From: a virus
Taxonomy: Duplodnaviria > Caudoviricetes
Reading direction: 5' to 3' (one strand)
IMG/VR virus record: IMGVR_UViG_3300030389_001641
Span: 1 to 56,869 of that record
Length of the DNA stretch: 56,869 nucleotides
The translations under genes were made by a program, and so were the position numbers. Positions 18,140 through 32,366 of this stretch are shown here, one piece after another. Position 1 is the first letter of the stretch. The number at the start of each line of letters is the position of its first letter. The notes under the pieces are model-generated. The model saw nothing but the letters and a program-made list of their open reading frames with translations, was not told where the DNA came from and ran no database searches.

Positions 18140-18775
18140 CTATCTACCGAATAAAGATCCCAATCCTGATTGTAAAGCGTTCATAATATTACTTGCTCCC
18201 TCGTAAAAAGATCTTCTTTTCTTAGCTTCTCGATCCTTTAATATAGACGCTAACTGGGTCAAAGAATCTTCGTCCATGCCAGATCCCGCCATGAGCATCT
18301 CGGCAGGAGTTCTTTCATCAGTAGCCGTCGTAAATTCTGTCGGATAACGAGTGACCTCTGGTTTAGGTAAAAAATCTTTTGGAACTGCTTTTGATATAAT
18401 ATCATCTGCATATTTCTTTGCAGCGTCAGTAACAGTGCCTCTATTAACATTACCAACTCCACCATTATAAGCTTGTAATGCTTTGTAGTAATCTCCATCG
18501 AAATTTTTTAACATGGCAGCAAGATATTCCGCACCAAAACGTAGATTCTCATCTATGTCATAGCCTTTCGACCAATCCATAGGTTTTACTTTGTAACCAG
18601 GTTTTAACGCAGTTTTTTTCAAAACTTGTGTCAAACCTCTTTCACCAAGTTTACCCGTGGCGTTTGGATTAAAAGTGCTTTCCTTAAAAATCTGTGAAAC
18701 AAAAATCCTTGGATCTATTCCATACTGTCTAGCATATTCTGCCGCTTTATTAAGTATAAACTGTTTGTCTGCCAT
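18140..18775 (-). CDS. soluble lytic transglycosylase domain protein (probably virion-associated)
   Basis: KESTFNPNA catalytic Glu, GLTQV, ENLRFGAEYL, AYNGG; likely start MADKQF. Confidence 0.85.
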   Translation of the reverse strand: MADKQFILNKAAEYARQYGIDPRIFVSQIFKESTFNPNATGKLGERGLTQVLKKTALKPGYKVKPMDWSKGYDIDENLRFGAEYLAAMLKNFDGDYYKALQAYNGGVGNVNRGTVTDAAKKYADDIISKAVPKDFLPKPEVTRYPTEFTTATDERTPAEMLMAGSGMDEDSLTQLASILKDREAKKRRSFYEGASNIMNALQSGLGSLFGR

Positions 18776-18782
18776 AACAGAG

Positions 18783-19721
18783 TTAACCCACAGAAGTATT
18801 ATTATCAAGGAGAGAAAGCAATTCAGCGAGACTTTGCTCTTCATCCGTTCCTAATCCCATCAGTTGTTCAGAAGATAATGTTGGTGTTGCTTCAGATAAC
18901 ATACTCGCAGTGTACTGACTTGTCGGTGGAGTAATCATCGAAGTTTGAGGTTTGAATTGATCTTTGTAAAAATCTAAAAATCCACCATCTATTTTAGGAG
19001 GTGTAATAAATCCATCATCTACTTTAGGAGGTGTAATGCCCGTGAACCCAGAATCAAAATCCGCTGGTAAAGGTGTTACATAAGGAGTTGGTTTAACAAG
19101 ATCATAAACTGGAACTGGTATGGGTTTTTCATCACCGCCACCGCCAGAGTCGCCACCACCGCCACCGCCGCCATTATCAACGCCTTCATCCTCTGGAGGA
19201 TTATCGGGGTCATATTTAAAAGCTTTTTCACCCGCACCATGAACAACGTTTAAATCAGAAGCACTTTGTGTTTTCTTACCACCGCCCGCAGCTTCAGCAA
19301 TCTTTTTAAAATAATCAAGGTTATAGGGCGAACCACCAAAGTTATAATTGTCAAAGCTACTTAGATCTGAGTAATCGCCCCCTGAACCAGAAACTGTCGG
19401 ACCAATCTTTTTAAGTTCCGCTTGAGCTTGTTCCTGAGTCAAGTTCTCTGGATCCAATAATGTAACGGCAGATTGTGTACCGCCATATCTTCCCGCACTA
19501 TACGCAGGATTACTTTCACCGCCAAAACCTTTTGGAAACGGCGTAGCTTCAGCTACAATAGAAAAAGGTAAACCAAAAGCTTTTCCATAGTCAAATTTCG
19601 TTGAACCAAAAAAATCTTTAAAACTTGTGTCTGCTTCATTTAAATCTTCAGCAGCGGTTTTTGGAGTAGAAGTTTTTTTTGGAGTTTGAACATCAAACTC
19701 ATTTCCATATGAAAAATTCAT
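18783..19721 (-). CDS. low-complexity G/P/S/D-rich protein, first gene of the late operon
   Basis: 312 aa; GGAGG RBS; poly-G tract and ITPP repeats. Confidence 0.7.
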   Translation of the reverse strand: MNFSYGNEFDVQTPKKTSTPKTAAEDLNEADTSFKDFFGSTKFDYGKAFGLPFSIVAEATPFPKGFGGESNPAYSAGRYGGTQSAVTLLDPENLTQEQAQAELKKIGPTVSGSGGDYSDLSSFDNYNFGGSPYNLDYFKKIAEAAGGGKKTQSASDLNVVHGAGEKAFKYDPDNPPEDEGVDNGGGGGGGDSGGGGDEKPIPVPVYDLVKPTPYVTPLPADFDSGFTGITPPKVDDGFITPPKIDGGFLDFYKDQFKPQTSMITPPTSQYTASMLSEATPTLSSEQLMGLGTDEEQSLAELLSLLDNNTSVG

Positions 19722-19785: not shown

Positions 19786-19814
19786 ACTATACAGAAAAAG
19801 GGTTCTCGGATCAA
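19786..19814 (-). promoter_or_regulatory. sigma70-like promoter for the leftward late operon
   Basis: TTGATC-17 nt-TATAGT with a TG extension; an inverted repeat at 19808-19827 overlaps the -35. Confidence 0.6.
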
Positions 19815-19993
19815 GGGTCTTTGATCCACCATAAAGCTGAGACCAGAAAAGTTATGGCTACGAACAAGCTAATTATGAAGAAGATTATCATAACTACAAT
19901 ATATATCCGAATGAAAATATATCCAAATGAATTTATAAAACTTGGGCGGGAGGGTGGGGCCCGGCAGGCCGGCCAATGTCAAGGGGGTATGGG

Positions 19994-20061
19994 TGTCAGT
20001 AATTTGACATATACCGATCCGATTTGACCAAGTAACCCCTTGTCAAGTCAATAATTTGACA
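19994..20061. promoter_or_regulatory. two related palindromes GTCA-RTAAT-TTGAC (candidate operators)
   Basis: tgtcagtaatttgaca at 19994 and agtcaataatttgaca at 20046 in the divergent intergenic region. Confidence 0.5.
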
Positions 20062-20198
20062 AATGTTATTTTGTGCTAGCTGCTAGCGTTATTTTTACAA
20101 CAGTTAATTATAAGTTAAATAAGTCTGTATTATGTTGTAGTATGTTGTCCTGGAAATTGATAATATATTTATATGGTTAATTAAAAGGAAATTTAAAA

Positions 20199-20474
20199 AT
20201 GAATACACCAACAGTAATAAATATGAAGTCATCAAAAGGTAACAAAGTTCCTAATCAATTTATAATTTGGACAGATGAAGAACAATTTTTTCAAAGCTAC
20301 CAAACTATTATCGGTAAAAGAGATATCAAGGGTAACATTACTCTTGATGAAAATAGATGGGATTATTCTGTGACCACATCAAAATATAGAAATCTATGGC
20401 TAGGCATGAATACGAAAGAAGTTAAAGATGCCATTAAATCTGGTACAATTATTCTGGATAATTTAAATCAATAA
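20199..20474 (+). CDS. early hypothetical protein
   Basis: 91 aa; AAGGA RBS; FQSY...I, WDYS.TT.KYRN motif. Confidence 0.75.
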   Translation: MNTPTVINMKSSKGNKVPNQFIIWTDEEQFFQSYQTIIGKRDIKGNITLDENRWDYSVTTSKYRNLWLGMNTKEVKDAIKSGTIILDNLNQ

Positions 20475-20511
20475 AAAATAAAAGGCTTGCGAGAATTTTC
20501 TTGCAAGCCTT
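20473..20511 (-). terminator. Rho-independent terminator between convergent genes
   Basis: aaggcttgcgagaa/ttcttgcaagcctt stem; T-tract on the minus strand. Confidence 0.7.
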
Positions 20512-20538
20512 CCAAAAAAAATTTAAAATTTTACTGCC

Positions 20539-20958
20539 CTACCATTTTGTTTTTTCCTTTCTTTTTATGGTAGGGTTTTTTATTTGTTTATGGATATAGT
20601 TCCATAGTTCCCGAAAGTCCGAAGTCCGAAATCCCGAAGTTCCCGAAACACCGAACTCTCGAAGATTTGACGCTTGTCCACCCTCAAATAAAAATAGACC
20701 ATTGTCCTTAGATCGCTTAACCAAGATGAAACAATGTCCACCATTCTTCCAATATGTTGTATTCCAAGATATTTGAAATGGAGATAGGTTTACTGCATTA
20801 TGTTTTGTAGTTTTAAGTTCGATCCAAAAACTGCATTTTTCCCATAAAAAATGGACATCTGGAACCCCTTTTGTGGTTCTACTTTCAATTCTTGAAAATA
20901 AACAATCTTTAGGGAGATTACTTTTTAACAATCGCCATAAGTTTTTTTCATTAGACAT
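20539..20958 (-). CDS. PD-(D/E)XK nuclease, VRR-NUC/Holliday-junction resolvase-like
   Basis: E..LW, RIE, GVPDV, WIELK, LSPFQ.SW motifs. Confidence 0.8.
   Translation of the reverse strand: MSNEKNLWRLLKSNLPKDCLFSRIESRTTKGVPDVHFLWEKCSFWIELKTTKHNAVNLSPFQISWNTTYWKNGGHCFILVKRSKDNGLFLFEGGQASNLREFGVSGTSGFRTSDFRELWNYIHKQIKNPTIKRKEKTKW
20610..20657 (+). repeat. six CCGAA copies at 7-9 nt spacing
   Basis: cccgaaagtccgaagtccgaaatcccgaagttcccgaaacaccgaac. Confidence 0.9.
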
Positions 20959-21038
20959 GAGTTTTTATATAGCAAATTTTAAAGAAAAACATAAAGTAAT
21001 TTTTTCAAAACCTAAATATTCTCTGATGTGATCAAAAG

Positions 21039-21142
21039 AAGTGTCTCAAGTGTCTCAAATTTTAAGAGAAGTGTCTCAAGGTTTTATCCATATATAATTG
21101 GAAAAAAATAGGTTTTGAGACACTTGAGACACTTGAGACACT
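21039..21142. repeat. inverted iteron array, 3x GTGTCTCAA facing 3x TTGAGACAC (candidate origin or packaging site)
   Basis: GTGTCTCAA at 21041, 21050, 21071; TTGAGACAC at 21115, 21124, 21133; AT-rich spacer and flanks. Confidence 0.85.
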
Positions 21143-21278
21143 ACATTTGAAACAAAAAAAACTTTTTTCATTTTTCTCTGAGAATGCTTATAAGTGTCTT
21201 AAACTATTTATTTGCATTATGTTTCATGTTGTGCAATAATCTTAATATTAAGTGATTTGTTTTTAGAGAGGAAAAATT

Positions 21279-21662
21279 ATGGTTAAATATGATTTAAATA
21301 AATTATTAAATGTTGTTAATTCTTTTTCTGATACTATTTGGTCTTATGAGGTTAGCAATGTTTCATCTGCTCCAAGATCATCTGAATTGCCAAAAGGTAC
21401 AATTTTTCAGAGGATAATTGGTAAAGATAAAATGACCAAAAAAGTTGTAAAAATTTTTGAGGTTACTGTTGGTTCAAATGTTCATGTAAATGTTCATGTA
21501 GTGAGTTCAGAAATCTATGATTTTATATTAAAAGAAATTTCTTTTGATTGTAAAAAATTATCCTCAGAAAATCAAAAATTAAAACATGAAAATGATCTAC
21601 TTGTAGAGTATGATTATAAACCCTCTTTTCTTGATAATGACCTAATTCTTGAAGAGGTTTAA
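21279..21662 (+). CDS. early hypothetical protein
   Basis: 127 aa; GAGGA RBS. Confidence 0.65.
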   Translation: MVKYDLNKLLNVVNSFSDTIWSYEVSNVSSAPRSSELPKGTIFQRIIGKDKMTKKVVKIFEVTVGSNVHVNVHVVSSEIYDFILKEISFDCKKLSSENQKLKHENDLLVEYDYKPSFLDNDLILEEV

Positions 21663-21664
21663 TA

Positions 21665-21832
21665 ATGGACACTAGTTATATTTTAATATGTGATTTTTGT
21701 GGGGAAAAATTACCAAGTATTGAGGGTTCTGCATTTTGTGATGGTAGTGCCTTTAGTGACATTGGATATGATGACAGAATTGCATGTTCAAATTGTATTG
21801 GAAAATTAACTACAGAGGATCAAGGACAATGA
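21665..21832 (+). CDS. 55-aa CxxC...CxxC zinc-finger miniprotein
   Basis: Translated by hand: MDTSYILICDFCGEK...IACSNCIGKLTTEDQGQ; GAGG RBS. Confidence 0.65.
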   Translation: MDTSYILICDFCGEKLPSIEGSAFCDGSAFSDIGYDDRIACSNCIGKLTTEDQGQ

Positions 21833-22152
21833 TCCAAATACCATGTGAAATTTGTGGAAAGTTAAACGACCATCAAATATTCCAACAAAATGGTCATGTT
21901 CTTTGTAGAGATTGTAATGGTGTTTATGACAATCACGAATTAGAACATAAGATTAAAAAAGATATTGATTATCATAAGAAAATGATATCAGACAAGTTGT
22001 TAGGTCGATTGACTAGCAAGCAAATTGGTCAAGAAATTGATCGATTTGAACATGAGCTATTTCTAAGAACAAAAGATTTATTTCTATTAGAACAATCTTT
22101 TGACAATGAGGAAGTAGTTTTAAAATCCAATAAATATAAGAAAAGGAAGTAA
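21829..22152 (+). CDS. zinc-finger protein
   Basis: Likely start MIQIPCEICG (ATGA overlap, AGGA RBS); CEIC...CRDC. Confidence 0.65.
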   Translation: MIQIPCEICGKLNDHQIFQQNGHVLCRDCNGVYDNHELEHKIKKDIDYHKKMISDKLLGRLTSKQIGQEIDRFEHELFLRTKDLFLLEQSFDNEEVVLKSNKYKKRK

Positions 22153-22153
22153 A

Positions 22154-22354
22154 ATGGGAAAATTTCAAAACTCATATTTGATTGAATTAGAAGATGATGC
22201 ATGGTCAATGGATCGAGATGAATTTATCCAGAAACATGGCATTTGGAATGAGGATTTTTATTTAAAAATAGAGAGGAGGAAAGACGAAGAATTGCGTTTG
22301 ATTGACGTACAACAAAGTTTATACAGATTTTTAAATGGAGGTAAAAACAAATGA
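22154..22354 (+). CDS. hypothetical protein
   Basis: 66 aa; AAGGA RBS. Confidence 0.65.
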   Translation: MGKFQNSYLIELEDDAWSMDRDEFIQKHGIWNEDFYLKIERRKDEELRLIDVQQSLYRFLNGGKNK

Positions 22355-22743
22355 AAATCGAAACAATAAATAAACAATCAATAGATGTAATTAGAAAATA
22401 TATTGCTAATGCTTTACAACAAATTCAAAAAGATTTGGGTGTAAAAATTAACTTTGGAAATGCTAGATATGATCATGATACAGTGCGATTTCCGAATGTA
22501 GAAGTATCACTTGAAAATGCAAAATCCAAGGAAGAGAAAGATTTGGAATGGGTTTTGAAAATGTATGATCATATTGATAGCAATAAAATTGCAGATGTTG
22601 GAAATCATAAATTTTCTATTGTTGGTTATAATGTGAAAGCCAAGAAAAATAATTGGGTGGTTCATGATCATGTAACCAATAAAAAATATATAATGCCTAT
22701 GAGTACAGTTGAAAAACATTTCAGAAAGGAAGTAACACAATGA
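22351..22743 (+). CDS. hypothetical protein
   Basis: 130 aa; GGAGG RBS; coupled. Confidence 0.7.
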   Translation: MKIETINKQSIDVIRKYIANALQQIQKDLGVKINFGNARYDHDTVRFPNVEVSLENAKSKEEKDLEWVLKMYDHIDSNKIADVGNHKFSIVGYNVKAKKNNWVVHDHVTNKKYIMPMSTVEKHFRKEVTQ

Positions 22744-23147
22744 AAAAAGGTTATTTAATTAATCCTAAAAATCAATCCATGACAGAGGTTGATGTTAAGG
22801 ACTATACAGATATTCGAAAACTTTTGAATTGTAGGGTTTTCACTAGTGCAGATTACATGCTCCATAGAGTTGGCACTAAAGATTGTCTTTATGTAGATGA
22901 CGAGGGGTTACTCTATGATGATACTGATGAAGATCGAAATTTCGGATTTGCGTTTGGAATATGTGATCCAGTTTTTGGCAAGGGTTTGATCATGGGTTTA
23001 GATTATAACAATGGTGAAACAACTGAGAGACCACATACACCCATGGAAAAATATGTAGACAGTATTTGCTATGGTTGGAGTGCCAAGAAGCCAGAACCAA
23101 AGATAGAGGTTCGATCTTTTGATAACTTTGAGGATTTAATAAAATGA
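22740..23147 (+). CDS. hypothetical protein (YVDDEGL motif, DUF3846-like)
   Basis: 135 aa; LINP, LYVDDEGL, FGKGLIMG. Confidence 0.65.
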   Translation: MKKGYLINPKNQSMTEVDVKDYTDIRKLLNCRVFTSADYMLHRVGTKDCLYVDDEGLLYDDTDEDRNFGFAFGICDPVFGKGLIMGLDYNNGETTERPHTPMEKYVDSICYGWSAKKPEPKIEVRSFDNFEDLIK

Positions 23148-23266
23148 GTGAGGATAAAAAGAAAAGTTGGTTTGATGACCATGTTATTGTTTTGGGTGAT
23201 AATGAAGAACTCAATAAAAAAATTATGGAAAAACTAAAAGAGGAGGTGGAGAAAAAAGAAGATTAA
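23144..23266 (+). CDS. 40-aa charged peptide (MSEDKKKSWFDDHVIV...)
   Basis: Translated by hand; ATGA overlap, GAGG RBS. Confidence 0.55.
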   Translation: MSEDKKKSWFDDHVIVLGDNEELNKKIMEKLKEEVEKKED

Positions 23267-23316
23267 TTACTATTAGCACTCTCATAGAAATATGGGAGTG
23301 CCTTTAATAATTAATC
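23261..23316 (+). other. long stem-loop with GAAA tetraloop (candidate RNA processing/stability element)
   Basis: gcactctcata-GAAA-tatgggagtgc 11-bp stem with one G-U, extended by gattaatta/taattaatc. Confidence 0.6.
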
Positions 23317-23332
23317 AAGGAAAGGAAAAATT

Positions 23333-23473
23333 ATGATTGATAATGATATGATAATAGAGCAATTATATATTGATGCCCTTGAAGAAGTTGAAGAGGAATT
23401 CAGATTTAGTTTAGAGCAAGAAGAAAAAGAAATCTTAGCCGAGAAAATAGCAAGAGAGAGATTTGAGAGATGA
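23333..23473 (+). CDS. 46-aa acidic peptide (MIDNDMIIEQLYIDALEEVEEEF...)
   Basis: Translated by hand; AAGGA RBS; ATGA overlap with the next ORF. Confidence 0.6.
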   Translation: MIDNDMIIEQLYIDALEEVEEEFRFSLEQEEKEILAEKIARERFER

Positions 23474-23805
23474 AAAATTCAATAGATATTACACATTTAT
23501 ATGATATCGAAAAAGAAAATCCGATTTATATGTTAATCGATTTACAAAATGGTCAAGAAATGACGATACATAACAAAGAGTCATTAGCAGTATATCTGCA
23601 ATATTTAACACCGAGAGATAAACCATTGATTGGTTATGATGGTTGGATTTGTTTAGATCCGACCGATATTATGTCTGTTAATACTTTAGATGATGTTTTT
23701 GAAATCTGTGATATGATCAAAAGATCCGACATGATACCGAATAAACGATATCCGACCGATTTTTTAAATATGGATATGGATTTACACATAAGGAGAATTT
23801 TATGA
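23470..23805 (+). CDS. hypothetical protein
   Basis: 111 aa, coupled on both sides. Confidence 0.55.
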   Translation: MKNSIDITHLYDIEKENPIYMLIDLQNGQEMTIHNKESLAVYLQYLTPRDKPLIGYDGWICLDPTDIMSVNTLDDVFEICDMIKRSDMIPNKRYPTDFLNMDMDLHIRRIL

Positions 23806-24119
23806 AACGCAAATGTCCAAGGTGCAATGTCCAAGGTGATATGATTGATGTACATGGTCATGTACAATGTTCGATCTGTGGATCAGTTATAGATGATTGT
23901 TGCCAAGGCGAAACTGCTTGTGACATCAATCCCCTAAAAACTTACTACATTCGAGTGAGAGCAGAATACGTTGGTTATTTTCCGGTAAAAGCAAATAATC
24001 TTGAAGATGCAGAACAAGCTGCAATTCAAGAATTGTACGAAGGAATGAATGATGAGTATGATGCGATTATTGATATTGAGGAATATCAACCCGAAGAAGA
24101 TAATGCTTTATTGCCATGA
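23802..24119 (+). CDS. zinc-finger protein with acidic C-terminal domain
   Basis: CPRC...VHGHVQCSIC....DCCQGE; AAGGAG RBS. Confidence 0.7.
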   Translation: MKRKCPRCNVQGDMIDVHGHVQCSICGSVIDDCCQGETACDINPLKTYYIRVRAEYVGYFPVKANNLEDAEQAAIQELYEGMNDEYDAIIDIEEYQPEEDNALLP

Positions 24120-24292
24120 TTTATTTTATTGAATGTCCTCTATGTTTAGGAATTGGAAGTATCCAAGCAGAACTTCCGATTGCCGAACATAAAAATGGTC
24201 ACGATCAGACACAATTATTAATAGAGTGTCCGAAGTGTGAGGGTTCTGGTGAAATTAATGTGGAAGGAGGTAAAGGAGAAAACTACGACTAA
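24116..24292 (+). CDS. 58-aa DnaJ-type zinc-finger miniprotein
   Basis: Translated by hand: CPLCLGIG...CPKCEGSG (two CxxCxGxG). Confidence 0.7.
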   Translation: MIYFIECPLCLGIGSIQAELPIAEHKNGHDQTQLLIECPKCEGSGEINVEGGKGENYD

Positions 24293-24326
24293 TTAAATTT
24301 TAACAATAAAAAGAATGGAGGTAACA

Positions 24327-24782
24327 ATGCCTAATCATTGTACAAATGAAATATATTTTAGTTTTAAAACTGAAAAAGACAAAGATCGTTTTTTAAAAAA
24401 CGTAGGAGGTAAAGACGAGAGTGGAGAGGAAGAACCATTTACTTTCAACAAGATTATTCCATTACCAGATGGTAAATGGGATTATGATTGGTGTTGGGAA
24501 AATTGGGATACCAAATGGGATTGCTATGAACTAGATGTTGATAGTGAAATCGGAGATGGAAGAACAACAGTCTCGATTAATTTTCTTACTGCATGGGGTC
24601 CACCCACAAAAATTTTGCAAAGAATTCTTGAGGAGCCGAAGTATTCCAAAGGTTTAGAATACGTTAGATGGTTTTATCGAGATGAGGCAGATCAGTTTTG
24701 TGGATATCTTGATGATGATTGTGGTTTAGAAAATGGAGAGGTAGTGACACCCAAAAAATTTACTGGAACCTATGATGCTTAG
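24327..24782 (+). CDS. DUF1281/YubB ferredoxin-like fold protein
   Basis: MPNHC.N, F.FNKIIP.P, WYDW..ENW.TKW-like, F.TAW.PP motifs; GGAGG RBS. Confidence 0.75.
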   Translation: MPNHCTNEIYFSFKTEKDKDRFLKNVGGKDESGEEEPFTFNKIIPLPDGKWDYDWCWENWDTKWDCYELDVDSEIGDGRTTVSINFLTAWGPPTKILQRILEEPKYSKGLEYVRWFYRDEADQFCGYLDDDCGLENGEVVTPKKFTGTYDA

Positions 24783-25902
24783 ACACGTAGATTTATGTAG
24801 TGGAATCGGGGGCTTTGCCCTCGGTTTCCATTGGGCGAAATTGTCCGAACCAGTATTATTTTGCGATACCGAACCATGGTGCAGACAGATATTAAATAAA
24901 AATTTTCCAAATATACCGATCGCTACAGATGTAAAGGAGTTAGCAAATGATCCAGAAAGACTTGTTCCCGACCACGACATCCTCAGTTGTGGATACCCAT
25001 GCCAACCATTCAGTGTTGCGGGTCTTAGAAAAGGAGAGGAAGATGATCGCCACATCTGGCCGAGCATCTTTAGAATTATTACACACAAAAGACCCTCTTG
25101 GGTCGTTTGCGAAAACGTTTATGGTCACGTTGCCTTGGGTCTCGACAAAGTGTTGTTTGACATGGAAAGCCAAGGCTACGCCACAAGGACGTTTATTGTT
25201 CCAGCTTGTGCCAAAAATGCGCCCCATAGAAGAGATAGACTCTGGATCATCTGTAAAAATGTGGGCGACACCGAGAGTCGGGGGCGAGGAGAGTTTCGAG
25301 AGTCTTCAGAAAAGAAAGGGAACGAAAGTTGCCAAATCGACAGGGGGCAATCTGTTGGCTCAAGTGGAGTACGAACAAATGTGGGCGACACCGAATACAA
25401 TGGATCATCTTCCACCGAGATCAAAAGAAGCTACCAAGAAAATGCAAGAGGGTCACAGAAAAGGGAGATCGAGACCGAGCAATCTCAGAGAACAAGTGGA
25501 CGAGGAGACCATGAAGTTATGGCCGACACCGAATGCTTGGGATGGGAACAGAGGTCCGAGGTCAAAGGAGAATTTGATCGAGAAAGATCACCAGATCAAT
25601 CTGATTTCAGCAGTAAAGGATGCCGAGGATCCAGATCCAGTACATCTTTGGCCGACACCGAGGGCAAGGGATTACAAGGATGGTCACAAGATACCACCGA
25701 GTATTCAAAATGGATCGAGGAGTCATCATCTTGGAACAAAAGTTTTGGAGAAGAAACAAACATCTGGAACGTTGAACCCAACGTGGGTCGAGTGGCTCAT
25801 GGGATACCCAAAAGGGTGGACAGACTTAAAGGACTAGGCAATGCCATTGTTCCACAGTTAGCCATGCAGATTGGTTTAGCTATAAAGAGTGATTTATCAT
25901 GA
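24772..25902 (+). CDS. C5-cytosine DNA methyltransferase, large (alpha-type) chain
   Basis: Motif I DLCSGIGGF, IV GYPCQPFS, VI ENV, VIII PHRRDRLW, X RLKGLGNAIVP; no motif IX in this frame. Confidence 0.92.
   Translation: MMLRHVDLCSGIGGFALGFHWAKLSEPVLFCDTEPWCRQILNKNFPNIPIATDVKELANDPERLVPDHDILSCGYPCQPFSVAGLRKGEEDDRHIWPSIFRIITHKRPSWVVCENVYGHVALGLDKVLFDMESQGYATRTFIVPACAKNAPHRRDRLWIICKNVGDTESRGRGEFRESSEKKGNESCQIDRGQSVGSSGVRTNVGDTEYNGSSSTEIKRSYQENARGSQKREIETEQSQRTSGRGDHEVMADTECLGWEQRSEVKGEFDRERSPDQSDFSSKGCRGSRSSTSLADTEGKGLQGWSQDTTEYSKWIEESSSWNKSFGEETNIWNVEPNVGRVAHGIPKRVDRLKGLGNAIVPQLAMQIGLAIKSDLS
24947..25837 (+). CDS. nested +1-frame methyltransferase partner (beta-type) chain with four W[AP]TP modules and motif IX
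   Basis: 296 aa open frame inside the MTase; AAGGAG 7 nt before the ATG; ends LNPTWVEWLMGYPKGWTDL. Confidence 0.8.
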   Translation: MIQKDLFPTTTSSVVDTHANHSVLRVLEKERKMIATSGRASLELLHTKDPLGSFAKTFMVTLPWVSTKCCLTWKAKATPQGRLLFQLVPKMRPIEEIDSGSSVKMWATPRVGGEESFESLQKRKGTKVAKSTGGNLLAQVEYEQMWATPNTMDHLPPRSKEATKKMQEGHRKGRSRPSNLREQVDEETMKLWPTPNAWDGNRGPRSKENLIEKDHQINLISAVKDAEDPDPVHLWPTPRARDYKDGHKIPPSIQNGSRSHHLGTKVLEKKQTSGTLNPTWVEWLMGYPKGWTDLKD

Positions 25903-26558
25903 AAATAAATATAGACTATTCAGATTTGTTTTTGGCGGGAGTTTATTTTCTTATTAACAAGGGTAAGGTTGTTTACGTTGGTGAGTCTGGAAAAATAATT
26001 AACAGAATTCAAAATCATCATAAAGATACGGGTAACCCCAAAGTTTTTGACGATTTAAAAGTTATATCAACAAAGACTTTTTATTGGCTAAATGATTATT
26101 GGTTTAGACTATATTTTGAAAGAAGGTGCATTTATTTTTTTAAACCAAAGTATAATAAACAAGAGTATGCGTTAAAGTCACCAATCTCATTGAATAATTT
26201 TTTAATGAGAAGACATTTGTGGAATCAAAATCCACAATTTGTGAATGTTGTCTCTAATTATTGTGGAACAGAAAAATTCAATTCAAGTAAAAAACATACT
26301 ACATTTATGCAAAAATGGTTACATCACCGAAGTAAAAATGGAAAACTAACAAAGATATGCAACTATGAGGGAGATGTATATGAGTGCAAAGGCTATGACC
26401 AATTTTTCAGAACACTCGACCTAACAAAAAAGATTTACATAGATGGTGGCAGTGCTTTCCATTCACTTGTTGATGTTACTTTGACTAAAGATAAAATAAA
26501 AAAAATGAATCTAAATCAAAAGATGTTTAGGCCATTAACAAAAAGAATGCACAATTAA
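25899..26558 (+). CDS. GIY-YIG nuclease domain protein
   Basis: GVYFL....VVYVGES....RI..H, later conserved E and PKYN; ATGA-coupled to the MTase. Confidence 0.7.
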   Translation: MKINIDYSDLFLAGVYFLINKGKVVYVGESGKIINRIQNHHKDTGNPKVFDDLKVISTKTFYWLNDYWFRLYFERRCIYFFKPKYNKQEYALKSPISLNNFLMRRHLWNQNPQFVNVVSNYCGTEKFNSSKKHTTFMQKWLHHRSKNGKLTKICNYEGDVYECKGYDQFFRTLDLTKKIYIDGGSAFHSLVDVTLTKDKIKKMNLNQKMFRPLTKRMHN

Positions 26559-26559
26559 A

Positions 26560-26976
26560 ATGAACGAGGTTGAGACTGGTAAATTAGGCGAGCATATTTG
26601 TTGTGTTCGCCTAATAAAGTTAGGCTTTGGAGCAGAGATAGTAAATCTTAACAAGACAGATGTTATTGTAGACATACGAGGAAAGTTTTTAAGATTACAA
26701 GTTAAATCAAGTTCTTTGAGACCAGATAGCAATAGACAGATGAGATTGTCTTATCATTTCGCAGTTTCCTATTCTGGTAAAAAGAAACCATTAAATAAGA
26801 GTCATTGTGATATTTTAGCTTTTGTTTCTATACCAAAAGAAAAAGTTTACTTTATGCACATAGATTTTATTGGTGGTGCTTGTTCCAAAAGAATACATGA
26901 AAAATATTTTGAAGAAGAAGATTTAGAACAAAGGACATTTATCAAATGTCTAAAACATATGGGAGTTATTAAATAA
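26560..26976 (+). CDS. PD-(D/E)XK endonuclease
   Basis: GKLGE, DVIV, LQVKS, CDILAFV motifs. Confidence 0.75.
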   Translation: MNEVETGKLGEHICCVRLIKLGFGAEIVNLNKTDVIVDIRGKFLRLQVKSSSLRPDSNRQMRLSYHFAVSYSGKKKPLNKSHCDILAFVSIPKEKVYFMHIDFIGGACSKRIHEKYFEEEDLEQRTFIKCLKHMGVIK

Positions 26977-27170
26977 TGTGGAAAGCTATGGCTTTGGTTT
27001 GTATGATTGAAAATGGAGAAACAAAATGTCCAACAGAATTATTCGATACAGAATTTGAAAGTAAGAATGAATGTGAGGTTTGGCTCACTCGAAAGAGGTT
27101 TTATGGTATGCCAAGAAATAAAAAGATTGTTTTAGATGATTGTTATTTTTCCTCTAATTCATCAAAGTAA
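26976..27170 (+). CDS. small 4-Cys protein with hydrophobic N-terminus
   Basis: 64 aa; MWKAMALVC...C...F.....C...C; GGAG RBS. Confidence 0.65.
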   Translation: MWKAMALVCMIENGETKCPTELFDTEFESKNECEVWLTRKRFYGMPRNKKIVLDDCYFSSNSSK

Positions 27171-27394
27171 GCATCAACAACAATAGAACTTATGATGGTT
27201 GCCATATCAACTTTGCTTTTTGCAGCTTGGACACATAACCACTCTACAACTTCGGATGTTAGTTGAGCGTTAACTCTGCCTTGAGGAACGCCCCTAGAAC
27301 GCCAATTTGCTATGAGCTTTTCTCTTTCTTCACATTTATCACAACGTCCAGAAGTTTTATTGATAGGTCCTTGACAATCTATACATATACTCAT
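27143..27394 (-). CDS. zinc-finger protein with possible ribbon-helix-helix C-terminus
   Basis: CIDC...CDKC, then RVNAQLTSEVVEWL..QA. Confidence 0.6.
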   Translation of the reverse strand: MSICIDCQGPINKTSGRCDKCEEREKLIANWRSRGVPQGRVNAQLTSEVVEWLCVQAAKSKVDMATIISSIVVDAYFDELEEK

Positions 27395-27612
27395 GATTTT
27401 TTCCTTTTTGGAAATGGAATGATATTGTCTAAATTATTTTGTTTTGCCATGGATGTAATGAACTTTTGTGTTATTTCATCACTCAATCCGGTAAAATATT
27501 TAAATCTTTTTTTTGTTTCTTTATAAGTAAGATTATTCTTTTTAAATTCAATTAAAACTTGAATCGCAGCTACAACCAAAGGATCTACTGTTTCTGTTTC
27601 ATCACTAGCCAT
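27391..27612 (-). CDS. hypothetical protein
   Basis: 73 aa; C-terminal NIIPFPK motif. Confidence 0.6.
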   Translation of the reverse strand: MASDETETVDPLVVAAIQVLIEFKKNNLTYKETKKRFKYFTGLSDEITQKFITSMAKQNNLDNIIPFPKRKKS

Positions 27613-29060
27613 TCTCTTTCATCCTCGCCTAAAACTTTTGCCCCAATTTTTATTTTATTTTTTAAAGATTTTATTATTTTTTCATCAATCGTTTTTTCAC
27701 AAATTAAATCAATATATAACACTGAACTTGTTTGCCCTATTCTATGACACCGATCTTCACTTTGGGACCGAATATCTAAATCAAAATCATTTGCATAATA
27801 TACAACAGTTTTTGCTTCATTAAGTGTTAATCCCCTTCCCGCTGTACTAGGATTACCAATCAAAAATTTAAGTTTGGAATTTTTATTTTCAAAATCCCGA
27901 ACTACTCTCTGTCTTTCTTTTTCTGAGGTATCCCCGAAAAAAGATGCGGTAGAGTCCGACCCGAAAATTTCTTTTAATTTATTTGTAATTGATATTATAT
28001 CATATCTGAACCTAGACCAAACAATTATTTTTCCCGAAGTTTCATTACAAATATCTATGAGTGCATCTAACCTAGAGGTAGGGAAGTTAACCACATCACC
28101 ATTATCTGTTTTTAAATGACCCGAAAGTATTTGTTGCAGCCGAAGCATTTGAGTAATCATCTCCTGGGTAGAAACAATCTCTCCATTGTCAAACATGAGA
28201 AGTGCCTCTTTTTGTATTTTGTTGTACATTCTTTGTTGCTCTGGTGTCATAGTGACGTACCGAACAGTATAGATTTTCTTTGGTAGATCTAAACAATCTT
28301 CTTTCAAGACCCGAAAGGTAAAAGGACTAATTTTTTTGGTCAGTTCTTCTATATTTTTAAACCCGATTACTTGTCTAAAGGACCGAGGTCCCATTTGCTT
28401 TTGATTAAGGATGGCATATCTGCCTTGAAAAGCATAAAAAGAATTAAAACCTAACATACCCTCTTCGAGAAACTCACATTGAGAGTATAAATCCATAGGT
28501 GATTGTGTGATGGGAGAGCCAGTCATTATTCTTTTGTACCGAAAATGTTTGGATAATTTAACCAAAGATTTTGTTCTCTTTGACTTTGGATTTTTAATTG
28601 TTGTGGACTCATCCACTGCAATCATCCCCGACATTCCATATTTTTTAGCAAACCATTCTGCTGCTTCCATACCTTTACCACTTGGATTTGAAAAAGCCTC
28701 AACATTCATGACAAACAGTTTCATTTTTCCATAACCGGCATTTATCATCTTATGAATGTCTTCTTTCATGGCTTTTGTAAGATTAGAACTCCATTGTGAT
28801 AAATAAACTGGAACGTTTTCCCAAAAATGTTGTGGTATTTCTTTCTCTGTCCAGTTTCGATACACACCCTTTGGTGCAATGATCAAGGCAAAATGAATTT
28901 CATTCTCTATATATAGCCTTGCTATGTCATCAATTAGAACTTTTGACTTACCAGTTCCCATTTCCATAAAAAACCCGAATTCTTTTTTACCCGAACTTCT
29001 TCTCAAAGCGTCCATTTGATGGATAAATGGTTTAGTTTTAAAATTGTAGTTGACTTTCAT
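27585..29060 (-). CDS. SNF2-family (SF2) helicase
   Basis: MEMGTGKS, VDESTTIKN, TGSP, GRGLTL, QSEDRCHRIGQ. Confidence 0.9.
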   Translation of the reverse strand: MKVNYNFKTKPFIHQMDALRRSSGKKEFGFFMEMGTGKSKVLIDDIARLYIENEIHFALIIAPKGVYRNWTEKEIPQHFWENVPVYLSQWSSNLTKAMKEDIHKMINAGYGKMKLFVMNVEAFSNPSGKGMEAAEWFAKKYGMSGMIAVDESTTIKNPKSKRTKSLVKLSKHFRYKRIMTGSPITQSPMDLYSQCEFLEEGMLGFNSFYAFQGRYAILNQKQMGPRSFRQVIGFKNIEELTKKISPFTFRVLKEDCLDLPKKIYTVRYVTMTPEQQRMYNKIQKEALLMFDNGEIVSTQEMITQMLRLQQILSGHLKTDNGDVVNFPTSRLDALIDICNETSGKIIVWSRFRYDIISITNKLKEIFGSDSTASFFGDTSEKERQRVVRDFENKNSKLKFLIGNPSTAGRGLTLNEAKTVVYYANDFDLDIRSQSEDRCHRIGQTSSVLYIDLICEKTIDEKIIKSLKNKIKIGAKVLGEDEREWLVMKQKQ

Positions 29061-29080
29061 AAATGTCCTCCTATATTAGA

Positions 29081-29109
29081 GATATAGTAATAATTGTGTT
29101 ACTTGTCAA
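29081..29109 (-). promoter_or_regulatory. sigma70-like promoter for the helicase operon
   Basis: TTGACA-17 nt-TATATC upstream of a GGAGG RBS. Confidence 0.55.
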
Positions 29110-29138
29110 CTTTTAAACCTGAAGAGGATGTACTTGTC

Positions 29139-29708
29139 ATGAAGACAGATATTTTTGAAGACAATATGTTTGTAGATGCGGATACATTAAGTGATGTAGG
29201 TGCTGAAGAAACAAAAAACTTATCTTTCCTAGTTCAACAGTTAAATGAAGTTATTTCCAAAATTGAAAGATGTGAGGAAACTCTTAAAACTTTGAAAAAG
29301 GAAAAACAACGATTATCAATGGAGACCATTCCAGAATTAATGGATGAGATGGGAATAGAACGTTTGGATGTAGAAGGAGCCACGGTTTCTTTAAAACCAT
29401 TCGTTAGTGCGAGTATTCCCACTAATCGTAGACAAGAGGCTTACACTTGGCTTCGTGAAAACGGTTTAGATGATATCATTAAGAACGATGTTGTCTTATC
29501 TTTTAATCGGGGTGAAGATAATGTTGCAGGATCTCTAATGGGAGAACTTGAAGAACGTGGTTTTCATCCAGAATCTAAAACTCACATTCATTCGATGACC
29601 TTGAAAGCTTTTGTAAAAGAAAGAGTTGAGAAAGGTTTACCGATTGATCTTGATATGTTCGGTGCGTTTGTTGCTCGAACAGCTGATATAAAAAGGAGAA
29701 AATCATGA
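29139..29708 (+). CDS. conserved replication-module protein (N-terminal coiled coil)
   Basis: Likely start MKTDIF after GAGG; IPELM.E.G, WLRENG.DDIIKN, IHSMTLKAFV motifs. Confidence 0.7.
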   Translation: MKTDIFEDNMFVDADTLSDVGAEETKNLSFLVQQLNEVISKIERCEETLKTLKKEKQRLSMETIPELMDEMGIERLDVEGATVSLKPFVSASIPTNRRQEAYTWLRENGLDDIIKNDVVLSFNRGEDNVAGSLMGELEERGFHPESKTHIHSMTLKAFVKERVEKGLPIDLDMFGAFVARTADIKRRKS

Positions 29709-30466
29709 ATCAAGAAAACTTACCAGCTAATATAATGGATGATATCTTTGCCACTGCGGGAGAAGGTGTTGATTACGATACATCGGAACTACAAATTCCT
29801 TTTGTTAGAGTTATCCAGGCCCTATCCCCACAAATAAAGAAAAACGATCCCTCTTTTATTAAAGGAGCGAGTGCGGGTGATTGTTTCAATACAGTTACTG
29901 GTGAATATTGGGAAGGTGATAAAGGTATAGAAGTTGTACCTTGTTTTCAGCAAACCAAGTATTTTGAATTTGTTCCAAGAAGTGAAGGTGGTGGTTTTGT
30001 TGGAGAGGTTGAAATAAACAATCCCGATATATCCAAAACATCAAGAGTTGGTGCAGCTGAAATATTACCTAATGGAAATGAGTTGGTTAAATCAGATCAA
30101 CATTTTTGTTTAGTGTTAGGTAAAGATGGAATGTTTCAACCAGCAATTGTTGATATGAAATCAACGCAGTTAAAAGTTTCCAGAATTTGGAAAAGCAAAA
30201 TTGCTATGTTAAAGATAAAAAATCCAAAGGGTCAGTTATTACGTCCTGCTTTGTTTGCAACAGTGTGGTCATTAAAGACGATAGAGCAAAGCAACGATAA
30301 GGGTAGTTGGTACAATTGGAGTGTTGAAATGGTAAAACAAGTTGATGATAAAAACTTGTTTTCGGAAGCAAGACACTTTCGTGACTCTGTAAAGTCTGGT
30401 ATGGCAAAAGCGGTTGAAGAAGATCATTCTGCAAATCAAACCGAAGAAGGTGAAGTACCATTTTAG
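29705..30466 (+). CDS. probable single-stranded DNA-binding protein
   Basis: 253 aa; AGGAG RBS; NDKGSWYNW aromatic hairpin; acidic tail ending EEGEVPF. Confidence 0.6.
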   Translation: MNQENLPANIMDDIFATAGEGVDYDTSELQIPFVRVIQALSPQIKKNDPSFIKGASAGDCFNTVTGEYWEGDKGIEVVPCFQQTKYFEFVPRSEGGGFVGEVEINNPDISKTSRVGAAEILPNGNELVKSDQHFCLVLGKDGMFQPAIVDMKSTQLKVSRIWKSKIAMLKIKNPKGQLLRPALFATVWSLKTIEQSNDKGSWYNWSVEMVKQVDDKNLFSEARHFRDSVKSGMAKAVEEDHSANQTEEGEVPF

Positions 30467-30469
30467 GGT

Positions 30470-30619
30470 TTAGGCACTATGGTTTTGTCTTTTTCCCATA
30501 GTGTCTAATGCGTGTGGCATAATTTTTTTTGCGGAGATATGCCACAAAAAGAGCAACGATTTTGTTGACTAGTTGTTGCTCATTGACCTAGGGAAGGTGT
30601 TTGGGTCAACACCTTCCCT
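30470..30619 (+). other. array of four back-to-back stem-loops upstream of the primase
   Basis: Stems at 30470-30508 (13 bp), 30513-30546 (9 bp), 30551-30581 (11 bp), 30590-30619 (12 bp); several G-U pairs. Confidence 0.75.
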
Positions 30620-30634
30620 TTCACGGAGATATTT

Positions 30635-32170: not shown

Positions 32171-32366
32171 TAAATATATTAAGGTAGGAGAGATAAGTAA
32201 AATCTTAGGAGTCTCTCGATCAACCATATACAAGTGGGTAGAAGAAGGTTCCTTTCCGAAACCTGTTCACTTTGGAGATGCTACAAAGAATTCAACAATG
32301 CGGTGGGTTCAAAGTGAGTTAGAAGATTGGTTAGCAAAACGTCCAAGAGAGAAAATGGATGTCTGA
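32148..32366 (+). CDS. AlpA/excisionase-like HTH regulator
   Basis: LGVSRSTIYKWV..G.FPKPV...RW..SELEDWL. Confidence 0.85.
   Translation: MKTMSLSDKYIKVGEISKILGVSRSTIYKWVEEGSFPKPVHFGDATKNSTMRWVQSELEDWLAKRPREKMDV

Follow-up and report, generated by a model that had tools for sequence, protein, structure and literature searches.

A strand-oriented CCGA word in the early region of a marine phage genome, possibly a Chi-like signal

Introduction

Why should a phage place a four-letter word on one strand of its DNA irrespective of the direction in which its genes are read? The question is raised by a marine phage (Duplodnaviria; Caudoviricetes) known from the IMG/VR record IMGVR_UViG_3300030389_001641, of which we analyzed the whole stretch of 56,869 nt, here called the window. 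A preliminary description, made from the sequence alone, counted by hand about 58 CCGA and about 6 TCGG on the top strand between positions 19900 and 29100, in patches and in genes of both orientations. It inferred an oriented DNA-level signal analogous to Chi or KOPS, starting next to the likely genome end, which could direct DNA entry, packaging, or helicase or primase loading, or act as a methylation or decoy site. Here, we tested the bias against codon-aware nulls and the general base skew, as that description had proposed, determined its extent, and looked for the same word in related phages.

Results

Polarity and extent of the CCGA bias

The observation was confirmed. The top strand of 19900-29100 contains 58 CCGA and 7 TCGG, compared to 118 and 71 in the whole genome. 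The patches were also recovered, with CCGA:TCGG counts of 6:0 in 20611-20656, 8:0 in 23449-23760 (9 CCGA if the site at 23439 is included), 16:3 in the C5 cytosine methyltransferase gene (24772-25902) and 17:0 in the SNF2 gene (27585-29060). In 500 dinucleotide-preserving shuffles of the interval, CCGA occurred 15.8 ± 3.4 times (maximum 29) and TCGG 11.6 ± 3.2 times. CCGA is the most strand-skewed 4-mer of the interval, and the bias runs against the G>C skew of this strand.

The biased domain is larger than originally described, however. The cumulative CCGA–TCGG curve has its minimum at 19806 and flattens after about 36–37 kb, such that the domain spans 19900-36100, i.e., the whole plus-strand early/replication block, with 84 CCGA and 14 TCGG, and stops there. 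Under a Markov model, CCGA is the most over-represented 4-mer of this block (z = +7.6), while CCGT is the most under-represented (z = −5.4). The trinucleotide CCG is followed by A in 84 of 92 cases, and CCGC and CCGT each occur once.

Independence from coding strand and codon usage

When synonymous codons were shuffled within each of 19 early genes, 38.4 ± 4.7 top-strand CCGA were obtained (maximum 54), compared to 76 observed, whereas TCGG was at its expected level (14.1 ± 2.8 expected, 13 observed). Redrawing the codons from late-gene usage gave 15.4 ± 3.9 CCGA against the 76 observed, and for SNF2 alone 1.1 ± 1.0 against 17. The two minus-strand genes of the interval are real: SNF2 matches the Pfam family SNF2-rel_dom (4.7e-22), and orf20539-20958 matches phrog_2165 (5e-21).

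We then counted how often a synonymous chance to make the word is taken. In SNF2, which is antisense to the block, 17 of 37 chances for top-strand CCGA are taken, whereas late genes take 31 of 1109 (about 3%) for the same coding-strand word (Fisher p = 1.6e-15). Early plus-strand genes take 53 of 295 chances, compared to 53 of 1019 in late genes (p = 8e-11). The SNF2 sites fall in all three frames (5/4/8). All 8 CGG Arg codons in this gene are preceded by T and all 5 TCG Ser codons are followed by G, so that these otherwise rare codons are used only where they create the word. Thus, the bias is not codon usage. Late genes showed no comparable enrichment against codon shuffles, with the exception of terL (10 observed, 5.5 expected, p = 0.03). 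The minus-strand late genes on the terminase side (14205-19721) have a weak mirror-image enrichment, taking coding-strand CCGA at 20 of 176 chances compared to 33 of 843 in other late genes, but this cannot be separated from coding-strand effects.

Organization of the early block

The left boundary of the domain is marked by a conserved, non-coding, GC-rich element (19900-20050) that contains GGGCGGGAGGGTGGGG (19944-19959), CCGATCCGA (20014-20022) and CCAAGTAACCCC (20028-20039). The element was aligned across 20 loci and was found within 3 substitutions in 18 of 29 relatives that had at least 3.5 kb upstream of TerL. It lies beside the terminase-side genes and is a probable cos/packaging or origin region. 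A hairpin with T/A runs (20482-20520), resembling a terminator, lies between the convergent genes 20199-20474 (plus strand) and 20539-20958 (minus strand), about 100 nt upstream of a tandem array of six (C)CCGA(A) units spaced 7–9 nt apart (20611-20654). On the minus strand, the array is translated as the C-terminal tail of the PD-(D/E)XK-like nuclease gene 20539-20958, in which 6 of 9 chances for top-strand CCGA are taken. The same repeat unit occurs in clearly non-coding positions in relatives. The DNA word is therefore primary, in agreement with the earlier suggestion that it dictates the peptide here.

Further into the block, a dense patch of 9 CCGA (23439-23760) lies in and just before orf23470-23805, where 8 of 10 chances are taken; this ORF has no homologue in the related loci. 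The methyltransferase gene takes 16 of 46 chances. The replication genes on the plus strand (29094-36030; Pam3 gp33/gp34-like, AEP primase, UvrD-like helicase and DNA polymerase) are moderately enriched, with CCGA:TCGG counts of 8:3 in the primase, 5:0 in UvrD and 9:0 in the polymerase. Counts per 2 kb along the domain are 8, 10, 21, 7, 12, 10, 6 and 9, followed by a sharp drop at the early/late boundary at 36 kb. In Pfam and PHROGs searches, no Gam, RecT, Erf or Red-beta family appeared among the early-block and flanking ORFs scanned, although many early ORFs have no known function and could hide an anti-RecBCD gene. No FtsK-like gene was found.

Tandem arrays in related phages

What had not been noted previously is that relatives carry tandem arrays of (C)CCGA(A), with 4–13 copies each. 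We found 41 arrays in 19 of 80 TerL-related loci, all on this strand and none on the other. Together with one more in the window, two in the relative G001 and four in the relative L221, this makes 48 arrays with 285 copies. All lie 0.7–4 kb from the conserved element, and none lie around SNF2 or the replication genes. The arrays are 45% C, 19% G and 7% T, with no complementary word.

The arrays fall into three types. Types 1 and 2 are non-coding and, by eye, end 10–25 nt before T-rich sequence followed by a TATAAT-like hexamer and a gene start. Type 3 arrays face a convergent gene rather than a promoter and are translated as G/S-rich C-terminal tails with a partly conserved FRGSG...LW motif. 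A terminator-like hairpin with a T run was found within 130 nt upstream of 31 of the 48 arrays, compared to 49 of 600 random positions. In one relative, L051, all three arrays lie 12–85 nt downstream of a called terminator on the same strand. The −10-like hexamer was only modestly enriched downstream of arrays (23 of 48 against 175 of 600), and a consensus promoter scan did not call promoters after the L051 arrays.

The dispersed bias is also kept in antisense SNF2 orthologues with 66–67% amino-acid identity. The orthologue in locus L003 has 18 CCGA against a shuffle mean of 8.2 (18 of 40 chances taken) and that in L004 has 16 against 7.8 (16 of 42), both with p < 0.002. In GC-richer relatives, however, the dispersed copies are not polar once the arrays are masked (for example, 24:27 in L044 and 8:17 in L053). 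Between contigs that are 96–97% identical, individual sites are no better conserved than other 4-mers (54 of 61, against 89% overall).

Discussion

The preliminary interpretation is partly supported. Our results support a signal that acts at the nucleic-acid level, is strand-oriented, does not depend on the coding strand, and starts next to an element that looks like a cos site; a Chi-like role is now the leading candidate. A KOPS-like role is not supported, as the motif is a 4-mer rather than an 8-mer and the domain is only 16 kb. KOPS are likewise polar words read by a DNA translocase, with an orientation that switches at a defined point, but they are G-rich octamers spread over whole replichores and read on duplex DNA by FtsK, and the tandem arrays differ from them as well. 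General primase loading is not supported either, as the signal is absent from 40 kb of the genome, and nothing in a methylation or decoy site explains the polarity.

When the genome is drawn with the terminase genes at the left, as for phage lambda, the word becomes 5′-TCGG(G)-3′ on the top strand, clustered at the right end. In this orientation, TCGG is distributed 118:71 between top and bottom strands over the genome and 83:14 in the right-most 16.2 kb (Kolmogorov–Smirnov p about 1e-20), and 26 of 27 top-strand TCGGG and 15 of 15 TTCGGG lie in that part. This is the layout described for Chi sites in lambdoid phages that lack a recombination module (PMC12315714), such as the LLS class of E. 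coli and MD8 of Pseudomonas aeruginosa. There, the host-type word is heavily enriched, strongly strand-biased (20:3 in LLS, 32:0 in MD8) and clustered at the end opposite the terminase genes, which is the end open to RecBCD after terminase cuts cos, in the orientation that faces an enzyme entering there; in MD8, it is the most frequent word of its length. Like those phages, the present one has no recognizable anti-RecBCD or recombination genes among the ORFs scanned. It differs in being a marine, non-lambdoid type with an AEP primase and an SNF2 helicase, in its word of 4–5 nt instead of 8, in the arrays placed after terminators, and in the abrupt end of the enriched domain. A five-base Chi does exist: the AddAB enzyme of Bacillus subtilis reads 5′-AGCGG-3′ base by base on the 3′-ended single strand (PMC4614115). 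That word is species-specific, G-rich and ends in CGG, like TCGG(G), but is a different word recognized by a known enzyme, and GCGG in the “active” orientation is almost absent from the block, where top-strand CCGC occurs once.

Several alternatives were considered. The main rival, less likely than the Chi-like reading, is that CCGA is a cis element of the early transcription units, read left to right on nascent RNA, on the non-template strand, or on DNA just upstream of promoters by a sequence-specific host or phage factor. It might insulate one unit from the next, through back-up or factor-dependent termination after leaky hairpin terminators, or activate the downstream promoter. The polar domain indeed coincides exactly with the plus-strand early block, from the divergent region at about 19.9 kb to the convergent junction at 36.0–36.4 kb, and the hairpins upstream of the arrays and promoter-like sequence downstream of many of them suggest a link to transcription. 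The arrays are also unstructured and C-rich, like Rho loading (rut) sites, which are C-rich, G-poor, unstructured stretches on the transcript. However, rut sites have no strict word, and generic Rho binding does not explain the strict need for G and A. SNF2 and the downstream plus-strand genes each appear, by eye, to have their own promoter-like sequence, divergent in the case of SNF2, so that rightward transcription across SNF2 is not required, yet SNF2 is among the richest genes. Nor is there a link to antisense status, since the two small antisense ORFs next to SNF2 (27143-27611) have no CCGA, while sense genes such as the methyltransferase and orf23470 are as rich as SNF2. The modest hexamer enrichment, the absence of called promoters in L051 and the placement of the type 3 arrays also weigh against this reading.

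A replication signal is improbable, though it has some attractions: the arrays would be iteron-like loading sites for the AEP primase or a helicase near an origin at about 20 kb, and the dispersed copies priming or loading sites on the lagging-strand template of a rightward fork. Primase template words are 3–4 nt and strand-specific, the block encodes a primase, a UvrD-like helicase and a polymerase, the boundary region has direct repeats and the GC-rich element, and the cumulative skew turns sharply at 19.8–19.9 kb, as at an origin. A phage-encoded reader would also fit conservation of the arrays across relatives of 36–50% GC. On the other hand, the top strand of the remaining 40 kb, which the same fork would also use as lagging-strand template, has only 34 CCGA against 57 TCGG, a 4-mer needs no enrichment to occur every 1–2 kb, the left arm shows at most the weak mirror image noted above, and DSL-LC04, which shares the primase at 42% identity, shows no polar word. 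Defence evasion or modification is very unlikely. T7 carries 36 EcoP15 sites, all in one orientation (PMC3874151), and so escapes this Type III enzyme, but the point there is the absence of the inverse orientation over the whole genome, without enrichment. Such escape predicts loss of one orientation and not a gain, whereas here TCGG is at its expected level and remains present (14 copies inside the block), CCGA is two- to five-fold enriched, and the effect covers only 28% of the genome. In another version, CCGA would be the target or a decoy of the phage C5 methyltransferase. The phage encodes such an enzyme, whose own gene has one of the highest CCGA counts, but a duplex methylation site is present on both strands, which gives no reason for polarity, and tandem arrays have no place in this evasion or modification model. 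Equally unlikely is a by-product without signal function, arising from compositional or codon bias, context-specific mutation or repair, or slippage of coding repeats. The translated type 3 tails, the lack of excess conservation per site, and the occurrence of (CCCGAA)4 in more than 120 unrelated viral contigs, which makes it a common microsatellite, could be taken in its favor. Against it, all codon-aware nulls are exceeded by far, the bias opposes the G>C skew, codon choice in SNF2 follows the word, types 1 and 2 are non-coding, and the 48:0 orientation is not expected from slippage alone. Furthermore, no single-step neighbor word is depleted in a way that could feed CCGA; for example, CTGA and TCAG are 30:30.

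Our preferred reading, held only tentatively (probability about 0.4), is a Chi-like attenuator of a host RecBCD/AddAB-type enzyme. The core of 4 nt (5 nt, CCCGA, in arrays) is shorter than any Chi cited here, the density does not decay with distance from the end, and the domain stops at a transcription-unit boundary, which a Chi model does not predict; the array–hairpin association, the non-polar dispersed copies in GC-richer relatives and the lack of per-site conservation also count against it. The polarity, its independence from the coding strand, the clustering towards one end, the conservation in relatives and the match to the published layout of Chi-rich phages are established by the sequence analysis, while the position of the genome ends, the direction of packaging, the identity of the reading enzyme and any effect on it are inferred.

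In this view, terminase would cut at the GC-rich element near 19.95 kb and package towards its own genes, leaving the early-block end free in replicating concatemers. The same end would be packaged last and therefore injected first. A helicase–nuclease entering at this end of cos, away from the terminase genes, would move rightwards in window coordinates and meet 5′-TCGG(G)-3′ from its 3′ side on the 3′-ended strand. The arrays and the many dispersed copies would then switch the enzyme from degradation to recombination or protection, as Chi does, and so tame the host enzyme that degrades DNA ends.

Genome Organization

The 56,869-base window is a complete, circularly assembled phage genome, in which an ORF runs without interruption across the junction of the two ends. 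All late genes lie on the minus strand, running from 19721 down to 1 and then from 56869 down to 36360, and include a large terminase (Pfam Terminase_6C). A 16-kb early/replication block occupies the plus strand (20199-36030) and contains a C5 cytosine methyltransferase, a GIY-YIG gene and a PD-(D/E)XK gene (both matches are below the Pfam cut-offs), Pam3 gp33-like and gp34-like proteins, an AEP primase, a UvrD-like helicase and a DNA polymerase. Two real genes inside the block point the other way. One is a PD-(D/E)XK-like gene at 20539-20958 (orf20539; phrog_2165, 5e-21) and the other is an SNF2 helicase at 27585-29060 (4.7e-22). The latter is followed in the same antisense unit by two small minus-strand ORFs (27143-27611, read by eye), one of which is Cys-rich. 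In the divergent intergenic region between orf20539 and orf21279 (21032-21150), GTGTCTCAA occurs three times directly and three times inverted, with arms that are 93-100% complementary, and these repeats look like an operator. No tRNA genes were found in a scan of the window.

The nearest named relatives are distant: phage DSL-LC04, phage 023Pt_psg01 and Pelagibacter phages HTVC023P/027P, at 41-48% SNF2 identity. Across distant relatives such as DSL-LC04, SNF2 keeps its orientation opposite to the primase block. A megablast search of the 19900-29100 interval against GenBank phages gave no match. All 20 public sequencing runs that hold the sequence are marine or seawater DNA runs, represented as contigs, and no RNA run is listed among them. 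Contigs from these runs bridge 19.3-23.1 kb, which says nothing about the ends in the virion. A search for TerL in genome bins gave four loci in three unrelated MAG lineages (Maricaulis, a gammaproteobacterium and a Sedimentisphaerales member), which is not decisive and was not used as host evidence.

Two features of the methyltransferase region vary between related sequences. The GIY-YIG gene (25887-26556), located between the methyltransferase and the PD-(D/E)XK gene, is missing from L002, a 96%-identical contig, and is skipped in contigs of two of the public runs. It is a mobile insert of the homing-endonuclease type. The variable region of the C5 methyltransferase (25255-25672) holds four tandem repeats of 40-46 residues, each starting with (G/A)DTE, with start-to-start spacings of 120, 138 and 129 nt. 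The contig of one run skips 125 nt here, showing that the copy number varies, and this may be a multi-domain target-recognition region.

Strand Polarity of CCGA

The preliminary description reported an excess of CCGA over TCGG on the top strand at 19900-29100, irrespective of gene orientation, and this observation was confirmed. In this interval, the top strand has 58 CCGA and 7 TCGG, whereas 500 dinucleotide-preserving shuffles gave 15.8±3.4 CCGA, with a maximum of 29. The bias is not limited to that interval, however, but extends to 36.1 kb (84:14). The cumulative CCGA-minus-TCGG curve has a sharp minimum at 19806 and flattens after about 36-37 kb. CCGA is the most strand-skewed 4-mer of the interval and the most over-represented 4-mer of the block under a Markov model (z +7.6), while CCGT is the most depleted (z -5.4). 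On the top strand of the block, CCG is followed by A 84 times, by C once, by G 6 times and by T once, while no such rule is seen on the other strand (14, 13, 6 and 8, respectively). CpG is depleted throughout the genome (observed/expected 0.46-0.63), and CCGA accounts for 84 of the 296 CpG in the block. The bias runs against the G>C skew of this strand. Late genes carry GCGG on the coding strand far more often than CCGC (74:27), but this bias follows the coding strand, unlike that of CCGA.

The sequences flanking the dispersed copies are nearly free. Only position -1 deviates, with C up and G down (C 26, G 10 of 84), and A is somewhat favoured after the word (39 of 84). Copies are clustered, with 17% of gaps being 12 nt or less, against 6% expected.

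The comparison with codon-shuffled, amino-acid-preserving sequences, which had been set beforehand as the test that could overturn the observation, showed that the bias is not codon usage. Shuffling synonymous codons within each of 19 early genes gave 38.4±4.7 top-strand CCGA, against 76 observed, while TCGG was at its expectation (13 against 14.1±2.8). Redrawing codons from late-gene usage gave 15.4±3.9 against 76 and, for SNF2, 1.1±1.0 against 17. The 17 copies in SNF2 fall in all three frames (5/4/8). CGG supplies 8 of the 25 Arg codons of SNF2, always after a codon ending in T, whereas elsewhere it is 2 of 179 Arg codons in early plus-strand genes and 5 of 531 in late genes. TCG supplies 5 of the 36 Ser codons of SNF2, always before a codon starting with G. 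In plus-strand early genes, 31 of 33 NCC codons that precede a G-starting codon precede GA, and 16 of 17 CCG codons precede an A.

We also determined the share of amino-acid pairs that could encode the word and do so, which varies by gene. It was 17/37 in SNF2, 6/9 in orf20539, 8/10 in orf23470, 16/46 in the methyltransferase, 8/39 in the primase, 9/43 in the polymerase and 5/39 in the UvrD-like helicase, but only 0-1 of 5-14 in several small ORFs and 1/12 in the GIY-YIG gene, which is almost free of CCGA. In late genes, the corresponding values were 53/1019 for coding CCGA and 31/1109 for coding TCGG. We considered the possibility of an antisense-specific function, but the small antisense ORFs next to SNF2 have no CCGA, and sense genes are equally rich.

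Late genes are not enriched against their own codon shuffles, except terL (10 against 5.5, p=0.03). The four late genes next to the boundary take 20/176 chances, against 33/843 for the other late genes (p=2e-4), a weak mirror image that cannot be separated from coding-strand effects. Similarly, in the late genes next to the conserved GC-rich element described below, CCCGA on the coding (bottom) strand outnumbers TCGGG 66:14 in 13 relatives. This mirror image of the early-side polarity may be a codon effect, or the same signal facing the other genome end.

Conservation in Related Phages

Three IMG/VR contigs that are 96-97.5% identical to the window show the same pattern. Between these contigs, however, individual sites are not specially conserved: CCGA was retained at 54/61 sites, compared to 89% for all 4-mers and 533/615 for other CpG 4-mers, and there is no purifying signal. 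At 66-67% SNF2 identity, the antisense SNF2 gene of two relatives (L003, and L004, the locus from record G001) keeps the bias, with 18/40 and 16/42 chances taken, against shuffle means of 8.2±2.2 and 7.8±2.2 (p<0.002). The bias is weaker in a third orthologue, L007 (12/42, p=0.02), and six others show nothing; five of these have 52-57% GC and one (L009) has 41% GC. An unbiased screen for 4-mers skewed the same way in SNF2 and in its flanks ranked CCGA first in the window and second in L003 and L004. Some SNF2 positions are shared, while others have turned over. In G001, the cumulative skew again rises only across the early block. DSL-LC04, the nearest named relative (48% SNF2 identity), shows no concordant polar 3- to 5-mer.

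Oriented Tandem Arrays

The six copies at 20611-20654 in the window are one member of a conserved class. In 80 loci centred on TerL relatives (77-99% identity), we found 41 arrays of at least four CCGA with gaps of 20 nt or less. They lie in 19 loci, all in the window's top-strand orientation and none on the other strand; many of the other loci do not reach the early block. Together with the window (one array), G001 (two) and L221, a contig binned in a MAG (four), the total is 48 arrays and 285 copies, although the loci were not de-replicated and two of them (L090 and L098), for example, carry identical arrays. The arrays have 4-13 copies (median 6), and the unit is mostly 5-7 nt. The base before CCGA is C in 262 of 285 copies, making CCCGA the core in the arrays, and the base after is A in 176 and C in 81. 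The composition is C 45%, G 19%, A 29% and T 7%. CCCGA is by far the commonest array-forming 5-mer in these loci, with 29 arrays in 18 loci and 0 for its complement. A scan of IMG/VR for (CCCGAA)4 hit more than 120 contigs, including giant-virus bins, showing that the bare hexamer repeat is a common microsatellite and is not diagnostic.

The arrays lie 0.7-4 kb to the right of a conserved, roughly 150-nt, GC-rich non-coding element between the terminase-side genes and the early block, for which 20 loci were aligned; the window copy is at 19900-20050. It consists of GGGCGGGWGGGTGGG, then a variable GC-rich stretch, then TTGTCAAGGGGG...TTTGACA...CCCGnCCGAT...CCAAGTAACCCC. The element holds a perfect four-run G tract (GGGCGGGAGGGTGGGG, a G-quadruplex-type motif) and the inverted TTGTCAA/TTGACA words, and is probably a cos/pac site or an origin. 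No Rfam family matches it, and an Rfam search of 19.5-36.5 kb at E<=1 returned only chance-level miRNA/sRNA hits, far below gathering scores. In 16 SNF2-centred loci, no arrays occur around SNF2 or the replication genes, apart from the two near the element in L004.

Of the 48 arrays, 31 have a terminator-like hairpin with a T run within 130 nt upstream, against 49 of 600 random positions. In one TerL-related locus, L051, all three arrays lie 12-85 nt downstream of a called terminator. Two array positions are non-coding and are followed within 10-25 nt by T-rich sequence, a TATAAT-like hexamer and a gene start, as judged by eye; a -10-like hexamer is present in 23/48 cases, against 175/600 random positions. 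In six relatives (L044, L049, L053, L054, L061 and L067), a conserved 5'-leader hairpin (GGAGTCGCGATGACCGCCGACCAG...CACTCC) lies downstream of the first array, between the promoter-like sequence and the first gene of the unit, and a conserved CGGCGCC box plus hairpin lies just before the arrays, and together they form a repeated terminator-box-array-promoter cassette. The third array position, which is that of the window, runs into the 3' end of the convergent nuclease-like gene, where it is translated as a G/S-rich tail of very variable length.

With the arrays masked, dispersed CCGA is polar only in the low-GC lineages (window 73:14, G001 96:58 and L046, another relative, 25:11) and not in the GC-richer relatives (L044 24:27, L049 23:24, L053 8:17). 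We also considered a G-quadruplex reading of the arrays, as (TCGGG)n on the bottom strand. This was set aside, since the window's own array has only three CCC runs, dispersed single copies cannot form a quadruplex, and the CGA part is invariant.

Possible Function of the Polar Word

In our interpretation, the signal is read on one strand, or in one direction, is anchored at the boundary next to the terminase-side genes, and is under selection that overrides codon choice. The GC-rich island in an AT-rich genome, directly beside the packaging genes, is where a cos site would be expected. When the genome is drawn with the terminase genes at the left, the word becomes 5'-TCGG-3' on the top strand, with counts of 118:71 genome-wide and 83:14 in the right-most 16.2 kb (Kolmogorov-Smirnov p about 1e-20), and 26 of 27 top-strand TCGGG and 15 of 15 TTCGGG lie in that part. 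If the genome ends lie at the GC-rich element, 5'-TCGG-3' is on the 3'-ended strand of the early-block end, as expected for Chi, which acts in one orientation only. This is the geometry reported in 2025 for lambdoid phages that lack a recombination module (PMC12315714), which have many Chi sites, nearly all in the orientation that faces RecBCD entering at the right end, and clustered at that end (LLS 20:3; MD8 32:0). The right end is the one left open when terminase cuts cos and stays on the left end, a point that the paper takes from Kobayashi et al. 1982. Chi words are short (5-8 bases) and species-specific, and the AddAB word of Bacillus subtilis has five bases, AGCGG (PMC4614115). A Chi word is over-represented in the host chromosome and co-oriented with replication, and is recognised by the host helicase-nuclease, which changes its activity (pause, nick or attenuated degradation). 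No Gam, RecT or Erf family was found in the ORFs scanned, although many early ORFs have no family and the late block was scanned only in part. We therefore consider a Chi-like attenuator or recombination signal for the host helicase-nuclease to be the best single explanation, with a probability of about 0.4. While the polarity, its independence from codon usage and the uniform orientation of the arrays come directly from the sequence analysis, the position of the genome ends, recognition of the word by a host enzyme and any change in the activity of that enzyme are inferred. Several points speak against this reading. The dispersed core of 4 nt is shorter than any Chi cited here, the density does not fall with distance from the end but stops at the early/late boundary, the arrays are tied to terminators, relatives of 36-50% GC share the word, and individual sites show no extra conservation.

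The main rival, which we consider less likely, is a transcription-unit element, such as a back-up or factor-dependent terminator, an insulator, or an upstream promoter element read in the direction of early transcription. This would explain the domain limits and the position of the arrays, but not the re-coding of SNF2, which has its own promoter-like sequences on both sides (as judged by eye), nor the equal richness of sense genes or the strict need for G and A. Rho utilisation sites are C-rich, G-poor, unstructured RNA without a fixed word, downstream in a transcript; the composition of the arrays and their position after terminators fit this description, while the strict CCGA word does not. 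A replication role is unlikely. Primase recognition sites would be needed all along the lagging-strand template, whereas the enrichment is confined to the early block, the other 40 kb have 34 CCGA against 57 TCGG on the same strand, and tandem arrays are not expected for such sites. Type III-style restriction evasion or a methylation target is very unlikely, since this predicts loss of one orientation and not a gain. In Type III restriction evasion by strand bias, the inverse orientation would be absent from the genome, with no enrichment of the kept orientation, whereas there are 71 TCGG genome-wide, and TCGG is at its shuffle expectation while CCGA is enriched. A by-product of composition, mutation or coding repeats is equally improbable, being contradicted by every null and by the non-coding arrays; single-step neighbour words show no source or sink pattern, and a mutational origin was therefore rejected. 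KOPS are G-rich 8-mers skewed over whole replication arms and read by FtsK, whereas the word described here is a 4-mer in a domain that covers 16 of 57 kb, and no FtsK-like family was found in the ORFs scanned. The interpretation in the preliminary description, of an oriented DNA-level signal analogous to Chi or KOPS, is thus only partly supported, with Chi the favoured analogy.

Some probability remains for something not listed here, including a phage-encoded reader. In this unlikely but more novel case, CCGA would not be the Chi of the host, but a new kind of polar self-mark, consisting of tandem arrays plus dispersed copies on one strand of the first-entering, early DNA. It would be read by a phage-encoded single-strand translocase or nuclease, for example the UvrD-like helicase working with one of the PD-(D/E)XK nucleases, or by an unknown early protein, which would use it to tell phage DNA from host DNA, or to control entry, insulation or processing of the early region. 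This fits the arrays being inherited with the phage across relatives of 36-50% GC.

Strand-biased Chi clustered at one end of a phage genome has already been described (PMC12315714), but literature searches on polar tetranucleotides, primase-site enrichment, CCCGAA/TTCGGG arrays and Chi found no description of CCGA/CCCGA polarity or arrays in phages. If the Chi-like reading is right, it extends the recently described strategy of many Chi sites without a recombination module from enteric and Pseudomonas lambdoid phages to an abundant marine phage clade, and would be the first case with tandem Chi arrays. It would also predict the Chi word (TCGG(G)-type, 4-5 nt) of an uncultured marine host lineage from phage sequence alone, and bears on how much phage DNA is degraded and therefore offered to CRISPR adaptation. 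If the transcriptional rival is right, the arrays are a new sequence-specific terminator or insulator element of phage early operons. Either way, the 48:0 orientation of the arrays and the re-coding of an antisense gene to carry the word are a clean example of selection on DNA overriding codon choice.
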